Source: a virus
Taxonomy: Duplodnaviria > Caudoviricetes
DNA length: 64,000 nt
IMG/VR virus record: IMGVR_UViG_3300031867_000006
Location: 64,001 to 128,000 of that record
Reading direction: 5' to 3' (one strand)
Shown here in pieces: positions 4,150 through 30,116 of the stretch (within the stretch, counting starts at the first letter, position 1; every line of letters begins with the position of its first letter). The translations under genes were made by a program, and so were the position numbers. Under the pieces are notes generated by a model. That model ran no database searches, was not told the DNA's origin, and saw only the letters and a program-made list of their open reading frames with translations.

Positions 4150-6006
4150 TTAGAATAATGACATAATTAAAGCTTCGTCTATATTTTCTCTACTCGGTAC
4201 ATACGCTGTACGCTTGTTAAGAATCTTAGACTCCACATAATATCCATCTATACAATACTTGGTTTCAAGCTGGAAATCCTTATACTGATTAAATAAGAAT
4301 CGTTCCTTGCCCTCAGGTGCTGGAAGAATCATATTAACTTCTTTGATACCTTTTATATCAGAATCATATTTAGCCTTGACTGTTGCAAGCTCACTAAGTA
4401 TTCCAAGTTTTAACCCAGTGAAATCGACTTTCTTGAAGTTCTCATCGAAATCTATCTGATCTTCTGTAAGCATAGGCTTTCCAGTAAGTGCTGTATAGAA
4501 GAATGTATTATCTACAGTCTTATTAGTCCTATAAGCTTCATAGACTTTCATAAATCTATGAATATCTCCAACAAACTCATACTCTGCTTCTAGATAATAA
4601 TCAGCAACTTCTTTATGAGAGAGTATTGTGAGATGACCCTCTTCATCAATTGCAATGTACTTATCTGATACTACATCTGGTGAGAATAAATACTGGGTTG
4701 GATCTATAGTCTTATTATACTTATTAGTATGAACCTTCATGATGAATGGTTTCTTTATACCAGCTATAGGATTCATTGCTGCTAGAGACATAGCCTCATG
4801 TTTATATAATTCCATATACTGCTCATCATCATACCTTACGGGATACTGTATTTTCCATTCATATGATAAGTCATCTGCTACAGAGATGATGCCCACACAA
4901 ATTGGCGTAAGGTGATCCGGAAGATCCTCTCTAGAACCATTGCAAATGAATACATAAGCGTCTTCTTTCTCACCATCCTGATCTGGCGTATAAGCTTCTA
5001 TAGCATCCTGAATAGATTCAGCCCATATATCCTCAGTAACATCTCCGGGATTACGCTGGTCTGATATATACCAATGCTGAATTTTATCTATATCAATAAG
5101 TTTCAATCCGCATGGTGTAGATATAATAATATTATTCATTCCTTCCATTACATCGGCATCTTCTTTGAGATATTTAGCAACCTGAGAGGTGTCTTTAATA
5201 GAAATATTATATCGCTTTGCCGCAGATCTAATCCTTCTAGCTAATAATGGTTTCTTATCTTCACTAGCATGACCAAACAACTTTATGGCAGAATTTATAT
5301 GCTTTTCAGAATCTAATGGGAACTTGCGATCTTCAGGAATACCGAACGCAGAATCTGGTAAATTAGATCTCTTTGTCGCAGCCTCATTAAACTTATGATC
5401 TGTCCAAACCTGATAATTCGCTTTAGTAAGCTTATCCTTATGGGATAAGAGATATTCCAAAGTAAATGGTTTATTACCATATACATTAATATTGTCTTGC
5501 CCATTGGTTGTGAAGTACATAGATAAATCATGGATATGACCATGAATATTCAGATCCACTCCAGGAATCTGCTCCACATTCTCAGGTCTATGCGAGAAAT
5601 ATACTCTAACTCCATCAAAGTCATGAATAAGATATTCATATATAAAATCGAATCCACAGTTTTCATAGAAATCAGAACCCTGCATACCATCATGATTGCC
5701 TATAATAAGCAGCTTCTTTCCAGGTATTGACTTCATGATCTCTTGAGCCTGAGCAGAATCTTCTTCATTAGCATATCTAAAGCAGATGTCGCCTAAGAAA
5801 AGAAAGACGTCATTGTCTTTAATATTCTTCTTACACCAAGAAACCATATTCTGTATATTTATCTTATTCTTACCCTTGCCGTATTTATGAGCATTTATAT
5901 GCCAATCGGAAGATAAGAAAATTCTATCTTTAGGCGTATTATCTAAAAGATAATGAATATCATTACTATCTATCTCTTCAGGAGTATTCAAATTAATACT
6001 ATCCAT
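4150..6006 (-). CDS. multidomain protein: calcineurin-like metallophosphoesterase plus probable virion domains
   Basis: SDWH, LGD, GNHD, HRP and HGHIH motifs; then an RSNLPDSAFGIPEDRKFPL module; late-type promoter at 6033-6044. Confidence 0.75.
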   Translation of the reverse strand: MDSINLNTPEEIDSNDIHYLLDNTPKDRIFLSSDWHINAHKYGKGKNKINIQNMVSWCKKNIKDNDVFLFLGDICFRYANEEDSAQAQEIMKSIPGKKLLIIGNHDGMQGSDFYENCGFDFIYEYLIHDFDGVRVYFSHRPENVEQIPGVDLNIHGHIHDLSMYFTTNGQDNINVYGNKPFTLEYLLSHKDKLTKANYQVWTDHKFNEAATKRSNLPDSAFGIPEDRKFPLDSEKHINSAIKLFGHASEDKKPLLARRIRSAAKRYNISIKDTSQVAKYLKEDADVMEGMNNIIISTPCGLKLIDIDKIQHWYISDQRNPGDVTEDIWAESIQDAIEAYTPDQDGEKEDAYVFICNGSREDLPDHLTPICVGIISVADDLSYEWKIQYPVRYDDEQYMELYKHEAMSLAAMNPIAGIKKPFIMKVHTNKYNKTIDPTQYLFSPDVVSDKYIAIDEEGHLTILSHKEVADYYLEAEYEFVGDIHRFMKVYEAYRTNKTVDNTFFYTALTGKPMLTEDQIDFDENFKKVDFTGLKLGILSELATVKAKYDSDIKGIKEVNMILPAPEGKERFLFNQYKDFQLETKYCIDGYYVESKILNKRTAYVPSRENIDEALIMSLF

Positions 6007-6064
6007 TTTAGTTTCCTCCTTAATTAATATTTTATTAAATTGTCCAAATTGGGCTTAATTACAA

Positions 6065-6100
6065 AAAATAATAGACCCTCATAAAAGAGCCTATTATTTT
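6065..6100 (-). terminator. intrinsic terminator closing the Cas7-like/array transcription unit
   Basis: AAAATAATAG...CTATTATTTT inverted repeat with internal CTC/GAG pairing, T-run on minus strand. Confidence 0.65.
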
Positions 6101-6644
6101 AGTACAGCGCCTCGCTATACTCCACCGAACTCATAGTTACTGAACAGCACCACACCCTGCTTTACCGTAACAGAGCATTACAGTAATTCGCATTACTTCA
6201 CCCCACCACCACGGCACTTTACTCTACAATACCGTACCTATACTATAACCTACTCCACAGCACTCCTCCTTTACAATACGCTACGGGACATTACTCTGCC
6301 CGGCCATACCTTCGCACTACTCTAATTGACTACACATTACTTTACCTAAACCCCACGAAACATCACAGCGGAAGACCACACGATACCATTACTTTACGTC
6401 ACATTGTGAAACTAAACTAGACTTAGTCAAAACGTCGCAACAGCATACCGCATAATACTGAACAATACCGAAACACAACTCCACAGCAATGTACGCCACT
6501 ACACTATACCATTGCTACACACTACTTTGCCTTACTTTGCCTTAACTACACCAGGCCGAACCGTACGAAACTATACCTATACTTCACGTAACTCTACGAT
6601 ACTGCACCATAACAGAACTTCACTCTATTATACAACACCATTAC
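6101..6644 (-). ncRNA. pentamer-periodic (GYNNN)n array punctuated by GYNNNG hexamers; putative guide-RNA array of the adjacent Cas7-like protein
   Basis: Parses without gaps into 92 pentamers (80 end in AC/GC on + strand) and 14 hexamers (CNNNRC on +) at 6166, 6207, 6238, 6269, 6310, 6346, 6387, 6428, 6469, 6510, 6541, 6577, 6608, 6639; no ORF of 60 aa or more. Confidence 0.8.
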
Positions 6645-6651
6645 AAAGTAA

Positions 6652-7290
6652 TCAGTCTTCGATGATCTCATAAGTGAATCTACCATATGAGCCATTGCGC
6701 CACTGGCCGAGTCCATTATACTTACCGAAATCAAGCCATTCGTATACTGCCTTCTCAAGCTTGTCATTCAATAGTCTGATAACAAACTCTGCTGTTGCTC
6801 CTTCGTGGATCATTTCGCTATTAGCGAGAGATATACGAGGACCCTGCGCTGTCTCGGCACGCAATGATCTCTGAAGATTATCCATCTCTCCATCATATGA
6901 GATAGGTATCTTGCGAAGCGCAGCATCAGCATTAAGATTACCATCTTTGTCAGGCCCATAGACGAATACCATACCATCTATATATTTCTTATGGGCTTTG
7001 ATGCTGGCTGACGCGTTCTTCTCACCAAGCAGCTTAAGAATGCCGCAGGCATGCTTGAAGAACCCGCGGATCTGGTAATCCCAAAGCAAGGGGTTTCCAT
7101 CTTCATCACGAAGGAATACTGTTTTGCCCTTACGCTCAACTTCCTCAGTACCTAACGCTTCGATCTCTTCTTGCTTATTAGGAGCATCGGGCGCATTACT
7201 AGCAATATACTGACTATAGATGTCAGGATCGCTAGGTGCTGAGCCAAGAACTGGTGTTGTAAAGGTTATTCTAATCTTGATATCTTTCAT
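6652..7290 (-). CDS. stand-alone Cas7/RAMP-like RNA-binding protein
   Basis: N-terminal strand IKIRITFTTPVLG, helix QIRGFFKHAC and C-terminal Gly-rich loop GLGQWRNGSYGRF typical of RAMP/Cas7 proteins; AGGAGG RBS; no other cas genes in window. Confidence 0.8.
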   Translation of the reverse strand: MKDIKIRITFTTPVLGSAPSDPDIYSQYIASNAPDAPNKQEEIEALGTEEVERKGKTVFLRDEDGNPLLWDYQIRGFFKHACGILKLLGEKNASASIKAHKKYIDGMVFVYGPDKDGNLNADAALRKIPISYDGEMDNLQRSLRAETAQGPRISLANSEMIHEGATAEFVIRLLNDKLEKAVYEWLDFGKYNGLGQWRNGSYGRFTYEIIED

Positions 7291-7334
7291 AATTTTATCC
7301 TCCTTATATTTAAGATATCTATATACTACAATAT

Positions 7335-7346
7335 TATAATATATAA
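7335..7346 (-). promoter_or_regulatory. early-type phage promoter motif (TTRYATAWTATA on sense strand) upstream of the Cas7-like gene
   Basis: Same motif at 1389, 13891, 14773, 18443, 22440, 26154, 32944, 36985, 47862, 49648, 57335, 58637, 60070, 63239, each upstream of a minus-strand gene. Confidence 0.7.
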
Positions 7347-7368
7347 CTCAAATATCTTAAATTCACAA

Positions 7369-7535
7369 GGCGATGAATTGTTGGTTAAGTAGCGCTACAT
7401 ACAGGACTGGATCTGCAGAATACTATGATAATCAATACAAATTACAAATGTTTTGTTTAATAAATCCTGGATCTAATAATTTGGCTGGTAGAGAAATGGC
7501 TAATAATTTCCATAATGATGGAATATATTACGGCG
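7369..7535 (+). other. solo variable cassette (GGCG-ATG...TAC-GGCG)
   Basis: Encodes MNCWLSSATYRTGSAEYY...GIYYG with the same boundaries as array cassettes at 28253-30077. Confidence 0.8.
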
Positions 7536-7575
7536 CGTAAAATTGCAGGTACCACTATTGGTACCCGCAATATGA

Positions 7576-10119
7576 TTATTTTTTGATTGTGCCTTTAGAT
7601 TTAGCTTTCTCTTTTACACACTTATAGATGGTGGATTCATCTATTTTATCATTCTTGGCAATATAATAAGCCAGAAGCTTAAGAGCAATGTCTCTAGTAT
7701 CAAACGTAACAACCCATTGCTTTTTATTCTTAACTTTCTTGACTTTACCATACCATGTAACTTTACCCTTGTTTTTACCAGAGGTTCGTTTAAGCTTATA
7801 CTCTTTCTTAGCAGCCTCAACCCATGTTTTGATTTTACCACCATTGTTCTTGATAGTAACCTTAATGGATTTACCAACTTTAAGAGCTGCATTATATCCA
7901 GCACCATTATCAACAGTAGGAGATGAAGTATTCTTCTTATACTTCTTCCACTGCGTCTTCTGCGGATGAGCTTCTGTAGGATAAGTAGTGCTATCGCATC
8001 CACTTGTAGCAACCATGTAATCTTCTTTACAGTATCTACAAAGCATTACATATGGTATAGATCTAGATTCATCAAGCTTCTCTATCTTACCAACAGTATT
8101 ACATGATGGACAACCATATTTATAGTAATCTTTAGAAGATATTATTTTTGCAGGTCCGGCTGCTTTGATTTCTTTCTTGGCGCCATCGCCAGCTACAAAA
8201 CCACCATAGATAAATACTTTTCTAATTACCCATACATTTACAGTATAACCATAATTTAAGAAGTGGGTAAGTCCCTTAATGAATTTCTTAGCATCGTCAA
8301 TCTTCTTAAACATTTTAGCATCTGTAACGATATTAGATAACTCGATAACATCAGAATTCTCACCAACAAAGAGTATCTTACCATTATCCTTATGATTGGT
8401 AGTAATTACATAACGTGTATACAGCTTATAGCAGGACTCTAAATCTTTAAGATTAATCTGCTTATTATTTTTATCGTCCTTAATGGTGAGATCTGCAAAA
8501 TCATCATAATCTTCTAACTCTTCTGTTGTCTGACCTTCATCAGCATCTTCTTCAAGAACTAATGTCTGACCATCATCGGCAACAACATATCCAGCCGGAA
8601 TAACCCATATTGTACAGAAGGCATTATAAGATACGCCAGCGTAATAGTAAGTTGCTTGTAATCTAGCGCGACCCTCTGCTTTACCATAAACCATACCATC
8701 AGAATCTACTGTAAATATATTAGTATCTTGAGAAGTATAATACATTGTACCATATGCGACTGCTGTACCATAAGGCTGAATCTCTATGTTAGGATATTCA
8801 CTATCTCCAACATTGATAACAAATACTGATTCGTCAAATGCGATACCAGTGACAGTATCATCATTTAAGTATTTATTACTATCGTCAACTTCGGAATTAT
8901 CATCTAAATCGTCTTCAGAAGATCCAGTCTCATAACTTGCTTGTACTCCAGTCACATAGCATTCATCAAACTTAGTAGCATCAGATACAGATATACACTT
9001 TATAATCGCATTTCCTGGAGATAAACATGTCACATAACCATTTTCATCAACGGAGAAGCATTCTCCATTAGTATCATCACAATCACAATCCCATGTAACA
9101 CCCTCTTTAGAAGCTATGTATGGACTAATACTATAATTTAACCCTACTGTTGAACCTACAGTGATGAGTAGATTATGACTCTTTAATGTAACAGAAGATA
9201 CAGCAATCTCATCGCCATCTGTAACGTCCTCAGGAATAACTATAGATTCTGAAACAACCTGAGCGGTGGCTGAGAATGTAGCGTCAATTTCTTCTGGATT
9301 ATCCTTCTTATATCTAGTATGAACTACAGTAATTGTAGCCTCACCAATGCCTTGCAGAGTAAGAACACCATGGTTATCTACTAATGCAACTCCAGTATTC
9401 GATGAAGTATACGTTAAGTTAGGTTCTTCATTAGCCGTAGATGGGAAATACTTAAGTTTAGTATATATAGTAGAACCTTGCTTACCTTGATAGATGCTAT
9501 CATTAAATTGCATGCCTGTAATATTAATGATTGTCTCGCCAGTATCAGGCGTAGTAGGCTCCTGATCATTTATAACAATCGTAGAGAAGCACTGCACTGA
9601 CTCATTATATACCGATGCAGATAATACAGCTCTACCAGCGCTTATAGGATAAATATTACCATAAGCATCAACCTTAAAGATTGTAGTATTCGACGACTTG
9701 TATTTAACCTTAGGATAATTAACCAATCCATCAGGCTTAAAACCTAATACAGTCGGAAATGAGCTAGTATTTATAGGAATAGTATATGAATCAGACTCAA
9801 AAAATAACTGCTCAACGAGCTGTCTCTCATCATCCGCTCCAGTAACTAATATGGTAGTAGTACCCTCTATAAGATCATCACCAGAATAAGCTGTTATTTT
9901 AATAACAGCAGTACCATAGTTCTTACACTTAATAGAGACTATACCATTATCTATACTATCTACTGAAGCAATAAGATCATCTGATGATGAAAACTGAAAA
10001 TTAGCATTGCTGTCAGTCAAATCAGATGGTAGCAATATCAAATTAGCTTGTATGGTAGAACCCTGAGCAGATGAGTAAGAAGTCTTCTCAAACTGAATAG
10101 AAGTATATTTTCTAGCCAT
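7576..10119 (-). CDS. Ig-like (Big_2) repeat protein with C-terminal zinc ribbon and basic tail
   Basis: Repeated (Y/F/W)xSS(D/N)xxI/VxxVDxxGxVxxxxxGxAxI motifs; CPSC...CRYC; late promoter at 10149-10160. Confidence 0.8.
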   Translation of the reverse strand: MARKYTSIQFEKTSYSSAQGSTIQANLILLPSDLTDSNANFQFSSSDDLIASVDSIDNGIVSIKCKNYGTAVIKITAYSGDDLIEGTTTILVTGADDERQLVEQLFFESDSYTIPINTSSFPTVLGFKPDGLVNYPKVKYKSSNTTIFKVDAYGNIYPISAGRAVLSASVYNESVQCFSTIVINDQEPTTPDTGETIINITGMQFNDSIYQGKQGSTIYTKLKYFPSTANEEPNLTYTSSNTGVALVDNHGVLTLQGIGEATITVVHTRYKKDNPEEIDATFSATAQVVSESIVIPEDVTDGDEIAVSSVTLKSHNLLITVGSTVGLNYSISPYIASKEGVTWDCDCDDTNGECFSVDENGYVTCLSPGNAIIKCISVSDATKFDECYVTGVQASYETGSSEDDLDDNSEVDDSNKYLNDDTVTGIAFDESVFVINVGDSEYPNIEIQPYGTAVAYGTMYYTSQDTNIFTVDSDGMVYGKAEGRARLQATYYYAGVSYNAFCTIWVIPAGYVVADDGQTLVLEEDADEGQTTEELEDYDDFADLTIKDDKNNKQINLKDLESCYKLYTRYVITTNHKDNGKILFVGENSDVIELSNIVTDAKMFKKIDDAKKFIKGLTHFLNYGYTVNVWVIRKVFIYGGFVAGDGAKKEIKAAGPAKIISSKDYYKYGCPSCNTVGKIEKLDESRSIPYVMLCRYCKEDYMVATSGCDSTTYPTEAHPQKTQWKKYKKNTSSPTVDNGAGYNAALKVGKSIKVTIKNNGGKIKTWVEAAKKEYKLKRTSGKNKGKVTWYGKVKKVKNKKQWVVTFDTRDIALKLLAYYIAKNDKIDESTIYKCVKEKAKSKGTIKK

Positions 10120-10185
10120 TGCTGAATTCCTCCTTCTTTGTAATCAATTACATCAATGTCCTCCAAATAAATAATTGCCATATCT

Positions 10186-10346
10186 GGCGATGAGTTGGTG
10201 GTTTAGAGGGGCTACAAAAACTCTTACTAATTATAATCCACTTAATGGTTTCTTTGGAGTAGAAAATTGTAAGAATATTAATAATGCTGATTATGCTTGG
10301 GCTGCATATGATCCTAATAATGGTAATAAAATAATGAATAACGGCG
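10186..10346 (+). other. solo variable cassette (GGCG-ATG...AAC-GGCG)
   Basis: Encodes MSWWFRGATKTL...KIMNNG, same architecture as array cassettes; lies between divergent late promoters. Confidence 0.8.
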
Positions 10347-10425
10347 CTTATATAATCTCAAAACATAATATTAATGATCATCGGTCATAATAAACTATCA
10401 AATACTATATAAGGAGGTATTAGCA

Positions 10426-12111
10426 ATGGCTAGGATTTTATCCAATAGACCAGAGCAGGAAGTTTCTCTTTCCGTAATTACCCACTTTAAAGATGGTTCT
10501 GAATCATCCAGAACTTTTAAAGTTGGTGATGTTGTCGAAGGTCTTAGATACGTAAGTAACAGCAAAGTTGTTACTGTAACCGGTAAGATTTCTGCTATCA
10601 AGTATAATACATTCACAGTATCTAGAGTAGATGCAGAGAATGTAAAGGATTTCTTCAATGATGATATTAGAGCAGAATTCTTAGTAATTGATTGTAGTGC
10701 TCAGTATGAGTCTAACATCGTTACGGTTCCTGTAATGGAGATCGTTGAAGATGATGGGGTTGTAGATGTAGTTAAAGTTACATCTTCTCTTCATCCTAGA
10801 GTAACTATGGATATGGAATATACTGACGGGTCTGTTGTTAATCAGGATCTTGAGGTTGGCGATGTAATTACAGATTTCGTAGCAATGAGCGGTACACCCG
10901 GAACGCCTGATATTACTGGTGATTTCAGAATTACAGCATTTGCTTATAAGAACGTAACAGATACTCCTGTAGTGACAGGTCTCTATCTTACGCCTCTGGA
11001 TGGCGGTAAGGCAATTAACGTACCTTTCGGTAATATGATTTCATTTGTAGAGCAGGTTTCCGCATACGTTACAGCAGATAACTCTCTTGGAGAAATCGCA
11101 GATGCTTTAACAGCTTCTGAATCTGGTGTTGTATACGCACAGCTTAATAATGACGTAACTATACCATTGCGTGAAGATGGCAGGATAACCACTCTTATGG
11201 TAGGAGAAGGACAAGAGCTCAACTTGGACTTAAATGGTCATGAGCTTAACTGTGTAGCATACGCACTGTATGGCGACGGTGGCGTGATCAATGTTGAGAA
11301 TGGTACTATTAAGTGCGGTATTGTTGATAAGACTTATGGCGCTATTCAGGCCGCTGGTACAACAGAGCTTAACATGAAGAATATCACTCTTGATACTACT
11401 AATGTAGAGGTTGGTGATAATGAGCACAATTGGCTCTATGGTGTTGTTGGATCTGGTTCTGCAACTATCAATATCGAAGATTGCAAGATAACTACAGATG
11501 AAGCAAGCTGTATCGGTATTACTAACCAGACTAGCGATAATGCTACATTTATCATAGGTGGAGACTCTGTTCTTAAGACCACCAATTGTGGTTGTTTGTA
11601 CATTGCGGATGAACGCGAGGTTATTATTAAGGATAATGCAGTTATCGATGGCTCTATCGTAGCACGTATGGGCGAATTTACTATCCAGGATAATGCTAAG
11701 GTTATGTCTCCTGCAGACAGAGAGCTTGTTGATGGTATTGGTGTTCAGGTTACATTCAGTGGAGTAACTAAAGCTACTGCTGCATTCTGGGCTCTTACTG
11801 GTATTTATGGTACCAATACTGAGAATAATGACATGATCGTTAACGTTAAGGATAATGCTAAGATTATCGGTAAACTTGATAAGGCTATTGAAGTAATGAA
11901 GATTGATACAAAGTTCGATCAGAAAGTTGTATTTGATATTGCTTCTAAGGCTAATCTTGTATCTGTCGATGAAGATCCTATCAGAGTTTACGATAATGCA
12001 GAGCTTAGAGAGATCGCATCTGCTGCTGGTAAGACACTTGGAGCTGCTACAAAGATTACAGATCTTACTATTAAGATCGCTAAGCAGCAGGTTTATCCCG
12101 CAGCTGAATAA
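10426..12111 (+). CDS. probable virion protein with C-terminal right-handed beta-helix repeats
   Basis: LNLDLNGHEL and repeated I.I.DNAxI motifs; AGGAGG RBS; late promoter at 10393-10404. Confidence 0.65.
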   Translation: MARILSNRPEQEVSLSVITHFKDGSESSRTFKVGDVVEGLRYVSNSKVVTVTGKISAIKYNTFTVSRVDAENVKDFFNDDIRAEFLVIDCSAQYESNIVTVPVMEIVEDDGVVDVVKVTSSLHPRVTMDMEYTDGSVVNQDLEVGDVITDFVAMSGTPGTPDITGDFRITAFAYKNVTDTPVVTGLYLTPLDGGKAINVPFGNMISFVEQVSAYVTADNSLGEIADALTASESGVVYAQLNNDVTIPLREDGRITTLMVGEGQELNLDLNGHELNCVAYALYGDGGVINVENGTIKCGIVDKTYGAIQAAGTTELNMKNITLDTTNVEVGDNEHNWLYGVVGSGSATINIEDCKITTDEASCIGITNQTSDNATFIIGGDSVLKTTNCGCLYIADEREVIIKDNAVIDGSIVARMGEFTIQDNAKVMSPADRELVDGIGVQVTFSGVTKATAAFWALTGIYGTNTENNDMIVNVKDNAKIIGKLDKAIEVMKIDTKFDQKVVFDIASKANLVSVDEDPIRVYDNAELREIASAAGKTLGAATKITDLTIKIAKQQVYPAAE

Positions 12112-13857: not shown

Positions 13858-14047
13858 CTCCTAAAATATTATTGGTTATTGCTACAACTTTATAATATAT
13901 AATTCAAAAACTTTAGTTGTCCTATTTATATATAAATATTCGACTCCAATACATATGCATCTAATGAAAACACTCATTGCAAACAATATGAATGGTATGC
14001 AACGCTCTACAAAAAAAGAATCCCTAGACCAAAGCCTAGGGTTCTTA

Positions 14048-25174: not shown

Positions 25175-26104
25175 TTATTGCGATGATAAGAGCATGTTAT
25201 TCTGCATAGTTTCAACATCCCACTCTATAATATCTATTCTATGCTTAGTAGTGATTTTACCACCCTCATAGAGCTTTGAGCTGATTCTGGTGAATTTATT
25301 TAGTGCATCCTCATAGGACTTTGCTATAAAGCTCTCTGAGCCATAACCTGTGAGTGAAAATCTTAACTCATATAAAGTGTCTTCTAGATCTTCTATCTTG
25401 CATTTATATAAATATAATTTGCTTGACCTTATCTTTATATAAGTCATGAGTTCGTATATCTTGTTATTAGCCATCTCGAACTGATCGAAGATAACTTGTT
25501 CTACATAATAACCCAGAGAGTCCTCAGACTCCTTATGGTAATGCATGGCAACAAGATTTACTTGTCTAGAGCAGCATACCTTAATCACACTTGTTAAGGC
25601 GCAACTTAACCCAGTTACATACACTCTTATCGCTTTTGTGGCTTTTCCATTCATGAATATTATGTTTTCTTCAATGAACTTATTAACCACTGTTTCGAGA
25701 TAATCAAATTGGTTAATCTGATCATCTGCAATGTTGTTGAATATATATTTACCAACAGGTATCTTATGCCTCTTGGCGACTAGACCGCATTCTACAAATA
25801 AGTTATTATTATTTGCTTCTATATCATTAATCAGATTATTTAGTTCTTCATCTGGGATAAACGCTATACTATAATCATAGCCTGCGTCAATAATTTTATT
25901 TATAGATGATGTAGATTCATCCTCTAAGAGATTATTAACTTGGAGTGGGACTAGATTTTTATCATCGCATATTTCATCTAGCGATTTACCGTTATCTATA
26001 TCTTGTTTAATAGACTCCATCTCTTTCTTGTCTGTAAGAAGTCTATACTGCCCCTTTATATTAAGTCTCTTCCTTTTCATTTCACACACCTTTCTGCGAT
26101 CCAC
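25175..26104 (-). CDS. hypothetical protein
   Basis: 309-aa ORF, early motif at 26154. Confidence 0.7.
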   Translation of the reverse strand: MDRRKVCEMKRKRLNIKGQYRLLTDKKEMESIKQDIDNGKSLDEICDDKNLVPLQVNNLLEDESTSSINKIIDAGYDYSIAFIPDEELNNLINDIEANNNNLFVECGLVAKRHKIPVGKYIFNNIADDQINQFDYLETVVNKFIEENIIFMNGKATKAIRVYVTGLSCALTSVIKVCCSRQVNLVAMHYHKESEDSLGYYVEQVIFDQFEMANNKIYELMTYIKIRSSKLYLYKCKIEDLEDTLYELRFSLTGYGSESFIAKSYEDALNKFTRISSKLYEGGKITTKHRIDIIEWDVETMQNNMLLSSQ

Positions 26105-26218: not shown

Positions 26219-27474
26219 ATGGCTAATAAACGATTTAATATAAGCCAATTGGATCAGAAAAGGTTCATTAAAGTTAATGATAGCACATTAGAAGTTACTA
26301 ATCCTGCCATGTTTAACGCTACGAATGGACCAACGCCAGATGGCTTATTAAGTAATACAATATTTGGTATCACCAAAGCTGAGCGTTCTGGTATATATGG
26401 ATATATAGATCTTAAGGAGAAGTTTATCAATCCTTACTTCTATAAGATATGGCTTAAAATAGATAATAAAGTACGTGGATTAATCTATGAAACAGAAACC
26501 TTCTCTATAGATAAGCATGGCTATCTTGTTCAAGATGATAATGGTCAGACCGGTATAAAGTTTATCGAAAAGAATATTCAGGACTTTAAGTTTAAAGATA
26601 CAAAGCAGAAGCACTTTGTGGAAGCTCTCATGAAGGGCGCTAAAGATGGCTTATTCTTTACAGATAAGCTTATTATTATCCCTCCATTCTATAGAGATGT
26701 AGATACATCTGGAGGTGGTCGTATAGGTGTTGGTGAAGTTAATAAGCTATATATTAACGTTCTTAATAAGGTTAAAGCATTGCAAGATGCTAGCGATTAT
26801 GGATTCGATATCAAGGGTGGTATCAGAGGACAAATCCAGGATATTCTATTAGAGTTATATAACTGGTTTACTCTTGGTGAGACTACTATAGGTGGTGAGC
26901 ATACTGGCTCTGGCATATTTAAGAAATTTGGTAGTATGCGAAGATCTGTAATGGCTAAGACTGCAGATTATAGTAATAGATTAGTACTCTCTGCAGCGGA
27001 TACTAATGTAAATAGCAAAGAAGAACTAATGGTAGATTTAGACTATTCTGCTATACCATTAGCATCTGCTTTATCTGTTGCATATCCATTTGTGGTTTAT
27101 AATCTAAGACAGTGGTTTAATAATGAGTTTGGTGGAAAGACTCATTATGACTATATTGATAAAGATGGTAAACCTCAGCAGGTTGAATTAGATAATATCC
27201 TTATTGAATTCTCTGATGATAGAATCGATAAGGAGATTAATGAGTTCATTCATGGATACTCTAATAGATTTAAACCTATAGAAGTGCCCAATAAGGAAGG
27301 TAAGAAGATTTATGTACGCTTTAAGGGTTATTCTATTACTAGAGAGGAATACGCTAAAGGCGTAAGAGAGAATGATACTCTTATAGACAGAGATATAACC
27401 TGGTGCGATTTATTTTATATAGCCGCGTGTGAAGCAACTAAAGATAAATATGCTATTATAACAAGATATCCCAT
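26219..27474 (+). CDS. phage multisubunit RNA polymerase beta' subunit, exon 1
   Basis: GLLSNTIFG..ER..YGYIDL, IIPPFYRD, KTADYSNRLVLS and TRYP motifs of beta'; late promoter AACA-N6-TA at 26183-26194. Confidence 0.88.
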
Positions 27475-27800
27475 AAGTATGAATTGTGGCATCACATTGG
27501 AAACAGTGTGTTGAAAAATCCATTGAATTGCTGGGAAAGGCTAAAGCTTAGATTCCTATAACGGTGAAGAAATTCAGAAACAATATCTAAGATTGATTAA
27601 TGATGAAATACAAGCCTATATTTAGGTTCTACAATCAATTAATGTCTAATCAGCATCCAGAAATACTGGTTCAACGACTAACCCTGGAATGGGTGTAGGG
27701 CTATTCAATAGTTCGAAGTGATGGAGACCTAAGTCTTATATAGATATGGTCGTGATATAGTCTAATCTTTATGTAACTCATAAAGCTGAATCTTATAATG
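27475..27800 (+). mobile_element. group I intron (326 nt, no homing endonuclease ORF)
   Basis: Exon ends in T, intron ends in G; P/Q/R/S-like elements AATTGCTGGGAA, AATCAGCATCC, GTTCAACGACTA, GATATAGTCT; splicing restores TRYP-I-DSYFNN in frame. Confidence 0.9.
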
Positions 27801-28197
27801 AGATTCATACTTCAATAATTTATATAGCAAGGTTCATATATCTTCTACAAATAAGACAGAGCCTGTTGTTATAGATGGCGAATTCTATCAGTGGTATCCA
27901 ATGATACGTCAGAATGATATTGGTGAGAATACATCTAATAGATTTGTAGATACTTGCAATATCTGCAATCTATACTGTAAAGGCATGGGTGCCGATTACG
28001 ATGGTGACACGATATCAGATAAGCTTATGTTTACCAATGAAGCTAATGCCGAGCTTGAGAAATATGTAAATTCCAACGCTCAGTTTATAGCCTTAAATGG
28101 TGTAAGCTTAAGATACCCTTCCATGGAGGCAGTCCAAGCTATATATAACCTTACACTTACATTAGATCAGAATCAATTAACAGATCCAAAGTTCTAA
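27801..28197 (+). CDS. phage RNA polymerase beta' subunit, exon 2 (catalytic motif)
   Basis: GADYDGD (NADFDGD equivalent); spliced product 550 aa. Confidence 0.9.
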
Positions 28198-28252: not shown

Positions 28253-30077
28253 GCGATAACATTGGCTACGGTTTTAAGATCAATGGCATCCTCTTCATCT
28301 CCAGAAGTTTGTATGGTTGGCTGGTTAGATTCTGGTAAAGATAGGCCTTGGTCTGCAGCATTACATGATAATGGTAGTACATTATATAATTACGGCGCGA
28401 TGGAATGGTGGTTAAGGGGAGCTGCTGATCATGGTTTATCAATACCTCCGCATATAACAAATGGAGTATTTACAATGGTATCTAAAGATGCTAGATCTGA
28501 AAGGGTTAATGCTTATACTCAAAGTAATATAACTAATGGAGTTAAATACGGCGATGTATTGGTGGAGTAGAACTAGCACGTACTATCCAGAAGCCCCTAA
28601 TCATTCTGATAATAAAATTAGATTTAATGCTAAAGCTGATGGTGAAGAACATATATGGACAATTCCAGCTTATAGTTGGAATGGTGTTGATGTAGTAATT
28701 GTCGGCGATGAATTGTTGGTGGTTTAGATCAGGATGTTATGTATATATAACTGGAGGTGGTTGGCCAGCTAGGTCTGATAAATCTGCATTCGTTATGTAT
28801 ATGAAAGAAAGGAATCCACCAGTATGGGCTCATTGTGCTAATTTTACATATGTATATGATATTAGTACACCATGTAATTACGGCGATGGAATTGGGATGG
28901 TTATTTAGATCATTTTATGATGTAAGGACACAACCTTCAAATTATTTAAATAAAGATGGAACTGGATATTGTGTATATTGCCAAAGCTATAATAATACTT
29001 CTGGATTAAATTGGATTGCTTATCCTATAAATAAGCCAACTGATAGATATTATTACGGCGATGAGTTGGTGGGAAAGATCTGGCTATAAGCCTGACAAGG
29101 CATCATTTTGTTGTTCAGGATATTATAATACACCTAATGGAACACCTCAAGGTACTAATGCTGCAAAACATAGTGGTACTGGACAATTATTTAATCTCGG
29201 CGATGGAATGGTGGTTGAGGACTTGCCCAAATCATGATATAAATGCTGGTGCTTTAGAAAATAATAAGTCTGTTATAAGTTGCGTTTGGGCGGATGGTAA
29301 GAGTTATTATGCTATACAAGGCGGTAATGGCTATTATGTAAGAAATTTCGGCGATGGATTATTGGGATAGATCTGCTTCATCGAAAATAGTGCAATGTTA
29401 TTAATATTTTCAACAGATGATAGATTTATAAATACAGGTTGGAAAGTTCCGGCATATAAATTCCCTAGTGGTATTGATTGTATTTACGGCGATAATTTGT
29501 TGGTTAAGAAGTGCAGATTATAAAAGTATACCGTGGTATGGCACTCAATATGATAATAAAGATGTGAGTTTTATTTATATTAGCCCAGATGGTTCAGTAA
29601 ATTGTACTGTTGCATGCCATGGATCATCTAGCCCTAGTAATTACGGCGATGTATTGGAGAACAAGAACTAGTTCATCTCAAGCTGGCGATTGGGCTACAG
29701 ATAATAAAAGTTGTTATATGTGTATTAATGGTACTTATGTAATTAAAGCGGTGAATACATATGCTGCAACTAGTGTCGGCGATAACTTGGTGGAATAGAT
29801 CCGCTGCTGGAAACCATTGGAAATATAAAACTATTGGATTTACTGAAACTACTATTGATGGAGTATCAGACTTTAATTATGCGTGGAGATGGGAATCTGC
29901 TGAACCATATCAAATAATATATCACGGCGATGGATTGGTGGACAACTAGTGCTATGTCTGTATATGCTAATATTTATCATAGTGGTAGCACTGGTAAAGA
30001 TTATTGCCCTATAGATAATAAAGGTGAACCATCGTATCAATTTGCTGGTAATTGTGGATATAATATAGATTTCGGCG
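28253..30077 (+). repeat. array of 12 variable coding cassettes joined at CGGCG
   Basis: CGGCG at 28393, 28549, 28703, 28881, 29056, 29198, 29349, 29487, 29644, 29777, 29925, 30073; each unit reads (M/I)x(1-3)WWxR(S/T/G)-like...(Y/F/V/L/H)G. Confidence 0.9.
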
Positions 30078-30080
30078 TTT

Positions 30081-30116
30081 AAAAAAAGAAGCACCCTAGG
30101 CAATTAAGCCTAGGGC
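30081..30116 (-). terminator. CCTAGG-family terminator bounding the cassette array on the right
   Basis: CCCTAGGC-AATTAA-GCCTAGGG with A7 run to its left. Confidence 0.75.

Follow-up and report, generated by a model that had tools for sequence, protein, structure and literature searches.

The locus considered here raises the question of why a short open frame, bounded at both ends by the letters GGCG, stands alone in an intergenic gap about 20.7 kb from an array of similarly bounded units, and whether such a solo unit is a gene, a relic, an independently mobile cassette or a stored part of a protein encoded elsewhere. The window, by which we mean the whole stretch of 64,000 nucleotides that was analyzed, comprises bases 64001-128000 of a single virus record of 165,769 bp (35.9% G+C; completeness 59% according to CheckV), and coordinates below are those of the window unless marked as genome or record coordinates. 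The source is an uncultured rumen jumbo phage, and DNA of the phage is contained in bovine gut metagenomes. A piece of its RNA polymerase beta' subunit has its closest counterparts among GenBank phages in AR9, PBS1 and Listeria LPJP1; as the identity is only 31-33%, the virus is a remote member of those jumbo phages that encode a multisubunit polymerase of their own. GenBank phages yielded no DNA match to window positions 6000-11000, and no Rfam family matched anywhere in the window. The beta' piece (26219-27514) is followed after 386 nt by a 98-aa ORF (27901-28197) with the catalytic A-D-Y-D-G-D motif; no Rfam intron family matched between the two, and the gap could be an unrecognized intron or a natural split.

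The solo cassettes and their family

An earlier note, made from the letters of this DNA, had described the solo cassette (hereafter S1) as GGCG-ATG at 7369, followed by 54 in-frame open codons and a TAC-GGCG end, and this description is right in every detail (Table 1). The 163 nt from its ATG to its last G equal 3x54+1, the same phase as in the array units, and the called ORF extends slightly beyond the core (7373..7540, 55 aa). Coordinates and sequence comparison likewise bear out that S1 shares the strand, boundaries and 3n+1 length of the array units and has an unrelated interior. The base 5' of its GGCG is A, where the array word CGGCGATG and all 20 internal junctions have C. To its left lies a 212-aa Cas7-like gene on the minus strand (6652..7290, start at 7290) and to its right a gene with an Ig-like (Big_2) domain; scans for promoters and hairpins agree with the note's placement of S1 between the promoter of the former and the terminator of the latter. 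Folding of the hairpin is strongest on the minus strand, at -20.1 kcal/mol (z -4.2). The sigma-70-like sites around S1 and the second solo cassette are no more frequent than in shuffles. An equally long open stretch in the S1 reading frame arose in 0.85% of shuffles. Transposon-like ends were considered for S1 and rejected, as its two ends are direct and not inverted repeats.

Table 1. Coordinates of the solo cassettes, their relatives and the adjoining signals
Feature	Position	Strand	Remarks
S1, 5' core GGCG	7369..7372	+	directly abuts the ATG at 7373 (7369-7375 = GGCGATG)
S1, body, 54 open codons (MNCWLSS...FCLINPGS...GIYYG)	7373..7534	+	equivalent of the DGR-variable stretch of the DUF6273 lectin-like domain
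S1, 3' core CGGCG	7531..7535	+	TAC GGC G at 7529-7535, then CG TAA
Best sigma-70-like site, 10 of 12, for the Cas7-like gene	7333..7360	-	ends 9 bases before the S1 5' core
Hairpin, terminator of the Big_2 gene (7576..10119)	7546..7569	-	starts 10 bases past the S1 3' core
Second solo cassette, S2	10186..10346	+	GGCG, ATG, 52 codons, AAC GGC G, then C
Array A	28283..30082	+	short first unit and 11 units, joints CGGCGAT(G/A)
Two further arrays (B and C), six units each	about 155 and 162 kb of the record	-	from a whole-record pattern scan
S3, in-frame cassette copy in a 311-codon tip ORF	ORF at genome 14628..13696	-	both cores in frame

With the short core on either side, S1 is a genuine member of the array family. 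As counted here, this family comprises 26 units and one short unit, distributed over S1, S2, S3 and the arrays A, B and C; the cassettes lie dispersed on both strands across more than 90 kb, and their cores are all direct repeats. S2, with the same anatomy as S1, was found by the genome scan for more solo units that the earlier note had suggested. Its frame continues to 10390, and it sits between the divergent starts of the Big_2 gene and a gene at 10426..12111. Array A is flanked by two terminator-like hairpins. The sequence C GGCG AT is present at 20 of 20 internal junctions, with G as the next base in 18 of them, and the record contains the word CGGCGATG 22 times, compared with an expectation of 1.2, 21 of these occurrences being cassette junctions. 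All 26 units end in the codon GGC followed by G, a context that accounts for 8.6% of the glycine codons in long ORFs, in which GGC itself makes up 18.5% of glycine codons in this phage; this uniformity indicates that the core is kept at the level of nucleotides and not by the protein. The cassette frame is open in 25 of the 26 units and the other two frames in none, and for each of the solo frames, at 52-54 codons, the probability of staying open is about 0.006-0.009.

Beyond the cores the units have little in common. Self-BLAST of the 166-kb record recovered no DNA match among the units and no partner for S1, and the identity of the other units to S1 averages 13-30%. The shared protein pattern is M-x-W-W-x-R-S ... 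F-C/A-x-V ... G ... Y/F-G; S1 begins with MNCWLSS at the place of M-x-W-W-x-R-S and also carries FCLI, PGS and YYG. A leave-one-out HMM detects S1 weakly (10.4 bits, E 0.11 among 2,203 frames), with an alignment over its full length and still as the top frame outside the training set, so that by protein profile alone S1 is the weakest member of the family. The leave-one-out cassette profile recovered no further solo unit across the record, and a DNA search of IMG/VR with the junction word, single and paired, gave chance matches in GC-rich contigs and no arrays. One unit of array A (29354-29490) measures 137 nt from ATG to GGC, a length not divisible by 3, and its frame is interrupted by two stops. 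Since the tail of this unit can be read openly in a different frame, a stored unit seems to have lost a single base here.

The part of the DUF6273 domain that a cassette encodes

Searched on its own, S1 matches no Pfam family at E<=1. The domain to which the cassettes belong was recognized through two larger proteins of the phage, as DUF6273 (PF19789) matches the S3 tip ORF with 22.1-23.3 bits and a fiber diversified by the phage's DGR with 31.1 bits. In this 915-codon fiber the domain forms the C-terminus (genome 24980-25462; variable region 25333-25459, template 26304-26430), and the variable region differs from the template by 18 mismatches, 17 of them at template adenines. DUF6273 has been described as C-type-lectin-like, with the DGR variable region on the surface. 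When 15 database homologues were aligned with both phage proteins, the C-terminus of the family was found to run ...N-R-I-K-x-x-G-x-x-G-S-A, then x-x-W-W-x-R-S ... F-C-x-V ... G ... A-S ..., and finally G/L-V-A-P-F-x-x-I. A cassette reaches from the position right after G-S-A to the glycine just before the last constant strand (V-S/A-P-F-C), and the DGR variable region begins at the same G-S-A residue. Profile comparison by hhalign places the cassette profile on the last variable block of the DUF6273 family alignment (92%, E 6.6e-7, columns 276-306 of 321).

An AlphaFold model of the S3 tip ORF (pLDDT 77.7, pTM 0.78) assigns to the cassette residues, 256-304, three strands (258-263, 276-280 and 286-290) together with two loops modeled at low confidence; the strand that closes the fold, 308-310, falls outside the cassette. 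The sole clear PDB match of this model is a Thomasclavelia IgA peptidase (9qa6, E 5.9e-4). The composition of the cassettes is that of a binding loop or site: tryptophan stands at 5.5% versus 0.7%, asparagine, tyrosine and glycine are raised, and lysine, glutamate and leucine are lowered. S1 keeps the W-x-S-S strand, F-C-L-I and the glycine, and is without the remaining ~250 residues of the fold. It is accordingly a fragment of the DUF6273 domain and not a whole domain, and the missing remainder of the lectin fold marks it as a stored part rather than a gene. Compared with the repeats of the DGR, S1 has no constant GC-rich 3' homing block (V-A-P-F-C); its core is followed directly by CGTAA. 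The three units outside the arrays (7373-7534, 10190-10345 and genome 13717-13863) contain 15%, 23% and 25% asparagine, where long ORFs have 7.3% and the cassettes taken together 10.4%, and in this they resemble a DGR template repeat.

Reading phase, probable silence and change of place

S1 is probably silent, to judge from the expression signals in and around the cassettes. A Shine-Dalgarno-like motif precedes 85 of 120 long ORFs (71%), but among 25 cassettes it is present at one, which is not a solo. No RNA run was listed as containing the stretch, which speaks neither for nor against expression. Two units of array A start with ATA and not ATG, and to these signs are added the chance-level promoters and the frameshifted unit mentioned above. 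Each array unit is displaced by +1 relative to the preceding one, so that reading through a junction yields five to eleven junk codons and then a stop; terminal and solo units meet a stop or a switch to other sequence just past the core. The one in-frame array junction, at 28394, has two extra bases (GGC GCG ATG). The core can be read either as G followed by GCG, giving alanine before the methionine (in the S3 ORF and at junction 28394), or as GGC followed by G, giving glycine and one surplus base, and by virtue of this double reading a unit placed between two cores of a tip gene stays in frame.

The S3 tip ORF has 311 open codons and no in-frame ATG with a Shine-Dalgarno motif. In its upstream region (genome 14440-14640, minus strand) an ATG lies nine codons ahead of the frame and one base out of phase with it, and would join the frame only through a +1 shift at CAC GGG G. 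The expressed DGR fiber carries no GGCG cores, and no acceptor gene with a recognizable start was found in the 59%-complete record; such a gene may lie in the missing part of the genome.

We then looked for the cassettes in other contexts. A search of 1.84 billion representative proteins with the cassette profile returned only 17 small ORFs, all from this phage lineage. One of them, on a 54,149-bp JGI contig (P0016), carries the S3 cassette with 49 of 49 residues identical. There V-L-T-D-T-A stands before the cassette and G-D-E-L-V-D-stop after it, as is usual when an array junction is read through out of phase. Judged from these translated flanks, one and the same cassette thus lies in the tip ORF here and in an array in the JGI contig, with the context changing at or next to both cores. 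Another, from ENA (P0009), is a diverged copy of unit B1, in which both indels are in frame and the next unit begins differently. P0016 had no match among viral contigs. S1 itself was seen in no second context, being absent from longer proteins and from other cluster members; its cluster has one member in 15 billion proteins. With the 212-aa neighbor as query, viral and genome contigs gave nothing, and metagenome contigs yielded a single remote locus (L239, 56% identity). Its genes are arranged differently and it contains no cassette, so that it is uninformative as to an empty site.

The region 6600-10500 was further compared with contigs of four other runs, which are single low-depth Logan contigs. 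In run X3, a 778-nt contig matches 6626-7376, a stretch that ends with GGCGATGA, with 15 differences (2%), and then departs with 27 unlike letters; a second contig of this relative, which is about 2-3% different, covers 7622-8046, and at a threshold of 80% likeness nothing in the run resembles S1. In run X5, one contig matches 9949-10204, ending with the first 15 bases of S2, which are conserved, and then 24 unlike letters. Run X2 has S1 unchanged (160 nt, 0 differences) and S2 in its context (10005-10405, 0 differences), and a second contig of this run departs from the locus at 7360. The unlike end letters of the run contigs match nowhere else in the record. The points of divergence hint that the relatives in X3 and X5 may carry different cassettes at both solo sites; coverage holes over S1 in these two runs were not counted as evidence by themselves. 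A joint in run X4, 7346>9083 (side 25, 80% likeness), was set aside as unreliable. Among the contigs of the four runs, neither an empty site with a single GGCG (CACAAGGCGCGTAAAA) nor a joint across a solo unit was seen.

A proposed store of spare parts and its alternatives

With a confidence a little above even, we propose that S1 is a stored spare part, belonging to a store with core-directed exchange. Such a store would hold at least 26 mutually unrelated coding versions of a variable stretch of about 50 residues in a DUF6273 receptor-binding domain. The stretch would form three strands with surface loops between them, and its limits would be those of the region varied by the DGR in the sister fiber gene. 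A part copied between two cores of a tip gene would be in frame, and parts lying head to tail would be one base out of phase and silent. Copying or exchange would proceed by recombination at the core, through short-homology gene conversion or through repair after a cut at CGGCGATG, and S1 and S2 would have arisen in this way at GGCGC sites, within gaps that lie beside promoters and are transcriptionally quiet. On the left the available homology comprises 8 invariant bases plus the TGGTGG motif, on the right 5 bases; as this is too short for ordinary RecA-type conversion, template switching and cut-and-repair come into consideration. The former could take place as short-homology template switching during recombination-dependent replication. 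The latter would resemble the events at the yeast MAT locus, at which HO cuts and repair follows.

The earlier note had taken the cassettes to be individually mobile units that integrate at GGCG, which we retain as a hypothesis. It agrees with the cores at both ends, the second solo and the change of context, and it lacks an empty site and a recombinase: neither tyrosine nor serine recombinases (PF00589, PF00239) matched in the record, which is weak evidence given that the record is 59% complete. Removal of S1 or S2 would leave GGCGC, and the 4-base repeat can equally be the unit's own end together with the end of its neighbor. The data agree no less well with a stored unit being replaced or copied at the core. 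That the cassettes are autonomous units moved by a core-recognizing enzyme, comparable to an integron or a mating-type switch for protein segments, we consider doubtful; were it so, S1 and S2 would be fresh integrations at secondary GGCGC sites, and the gaps around the Big_2 gene would be live landing pads whose contents vary from strain to strain.

Two further readings treat S1 as a relic or as a small gene. It might, together with S2, be the relic of an old two-unit array split by insertion of the Big_2 gene at a shared GGCG, or else a stray duplicate, in either case without a role. Since S1 ends in GGCG and S2 starts with GGCG ATG, deletion of 7536-10185 restores a perfect array junction, which means that the Big_2 gene itself may be inserted at a core; decay would also suit the position of S1 as the most atypical member (WLSS instead of WW-R-S) and the presence of one unit that is already frameshifted. 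However, both solos keep open frames and intact cores though their interiors resemble the DNA of no other unit, no contig joins 7535 to 10186, and the contigs from X3 and X5 suggest that the sites turn over and do not decay, and we regard the relic as unlikely. The possibility that S1 is a small expressed gene, making a 55-aa protein from a weak promoter of its own with a bidirectional hairpin as terminator, draws on its complete ATG-to-TAA frame, a 9-of-12 promoter-like site on the plus strand (7310-7337), the folding of the hairpin 7546-7569 on the plus strand as well (-16.5 kcal/mol, with a U-run 8 bases behind) and the unchanged S1 of run X2. We find it improbable in view of the missing Shine-Dalgarno motif, which 71% of long ORFs possess, the chance level of promoter-like sites, the encoded product being a lectin-fold fragment without the core or last strand, the absence of S1 from the 98%-identical X3 relative, and the lack both of a Pfam match and of a second cluster member among the 15 billion proteins.

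The DGR of the phage offers another source, as the cassettes might be alternative templates or archived products copied via RNA by its reverse transcriptase. Their limits are those of the DGR variable region; the template repeat is directly followed by GGCGC (genome 26431-26435), as the solos are (7532-7536 and 10343-10347), although the record has 14 copies of CGGCGC where 10.8 would be expected and the match of the flanks may be due to chance; S1, S2 and the tip-ORF cassette have a template-like asparagine content of 15-25%; and the frame of the template repeat is the next-best match of the cassette profile. On the other hand, self-comparison gives no partner for any cassette, and what makes this route quite improbable is that the units are without the constant 3' V-A-P-F-C homing block common to template and variable repeat, and that the cassette seen in two contexts is identical in both, with no adenine-specific changes. 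Translation of the units in place, whether as coupled mini-ORFs or as a repeat protein made through +1 frameshifting or four-base decoding at GGC-G, would account for the need for exactly +1 at every junction, with the sole in-frame junction having two extra bases, and ATA-initial units would be harmless within a polyprotein. Decoding of this kind was nevertheless rejected: no tRNA genes of any kind were found in the window or the whole record, GGC cannot re-pair on GCG and GGC-GAU offers no re-pairing, and the frameshifted unit contains stops. The first ORF moreover is without a Shine-Dalgarno motif, a chain of half-domains has no plausible fold and the idea is inapplicable to a solo unit; as a whole we hold it to be highly improbable.

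Returning to the proposed store of spare parts, its nearest known logic is silent-cassette gene conversion, and its nearest known object is the DUF6273 DGR variable region. Silent-cassette conversion operates at Borrelia vlsE/vls, Neisseria pilE/pilS and the Treponema tprK donor sites. These share with the phage cassettes the presence of many promoterless, open copies that each cover a portion of a surface-binding protein, namely its variable part, and are arranged as head-to-tail units with short conserved boundary repeats and dispersed singles, and in the phage too one cassette is found both in the store and in a gene-like context. The bacterial boundaries are 17 bp or long conserved blocks, whereas here, in a virus, the boundaries share only 4-8 invariant bases, or as many as ~16 if the TGGTGG motif is counted; furthermore, the phage units are mutually unrelated and one base out of phase, while the bacterial ones are variants. 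BPP-1 Mtd is a DGR target with a C-type-lectin fold. The cassettes belong to the same domain family as the DGR target of this genome, in which a complete template/variable pair is present, and comprise exactly the stretch that the DGR varies; they differ in that S1 is without a template partner, adenine pattern and homing end, whole alternatives being stored instead of one template being mutagenized. DGRs with DUF6273 or C-type-lectin targets have been reported as the tentaclins of gut phages (PMC10743442) and at a Toutatisvirus hotspot (bioRxiv 10.1101/2024.10.15.618418). In our full-text literature searches DUF6273 appeared solely among the targets of DGRs, and donor or silent cassettes were encountered in no phage.

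Alternative C-terminal receptor-binding segments, joined to a constant part at short crossover sites, are also kept in the genome in systems with invertible or shuffling tail-fiber ends, such as Mu G/Gin, P1 C/Cin, p15B Min and the R64 shufflon; there, however, the sites are inverted with an adjacent invertase, in contrast to the direct repeats seen here, and no serine or tyrosine recombinase was found in the record. Integrons resemble the phage cassettes in having promoterless units in one orientation, a short core, arrays and occasional singles at secondary core-only sites, but integron cassettes are whole genes with a folded attC and IntI, unlike the present gene fragments, for which neither inverted repeats nor an integrase were found.

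Phages are known to retarget their receptor-binding tips by DGR mutagenesis, by invertible segments and by slow modular exchange. If a phage could draw on stored, ready-made and unrelated loops and insert them into a lectin scaffold without loss of frame, this would add another strategy to these. In form it would correspond to the antigenic variation of spirochetes and Neisseria, and it would exist beside a DGR that works on the same loop. To this picture the solos add units outside the arrays, with cores on both sides and at sites that look variable between strains, and with one unit, unique flanks and two cores they would provide the simplest test bed. If the core-directed exchange is enzymatic, the 8-base word and its enzyme could serve for in-frame loop swapping.

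A separate observation concerns a 72-82-bp element that is 98.6% identical at window 13921-14003, genome 13905-13976 and genome 158698-158782. One copy lies within the tip ORF, 38 nt upstream of that ORF's GGCGATG junction; the other two are intergenic and have a common promoter-like word upstream, one of them being then followed by a terminator hairpin. The element may encode a small RNA with the same sequence as the sense strand of the tip ORF.
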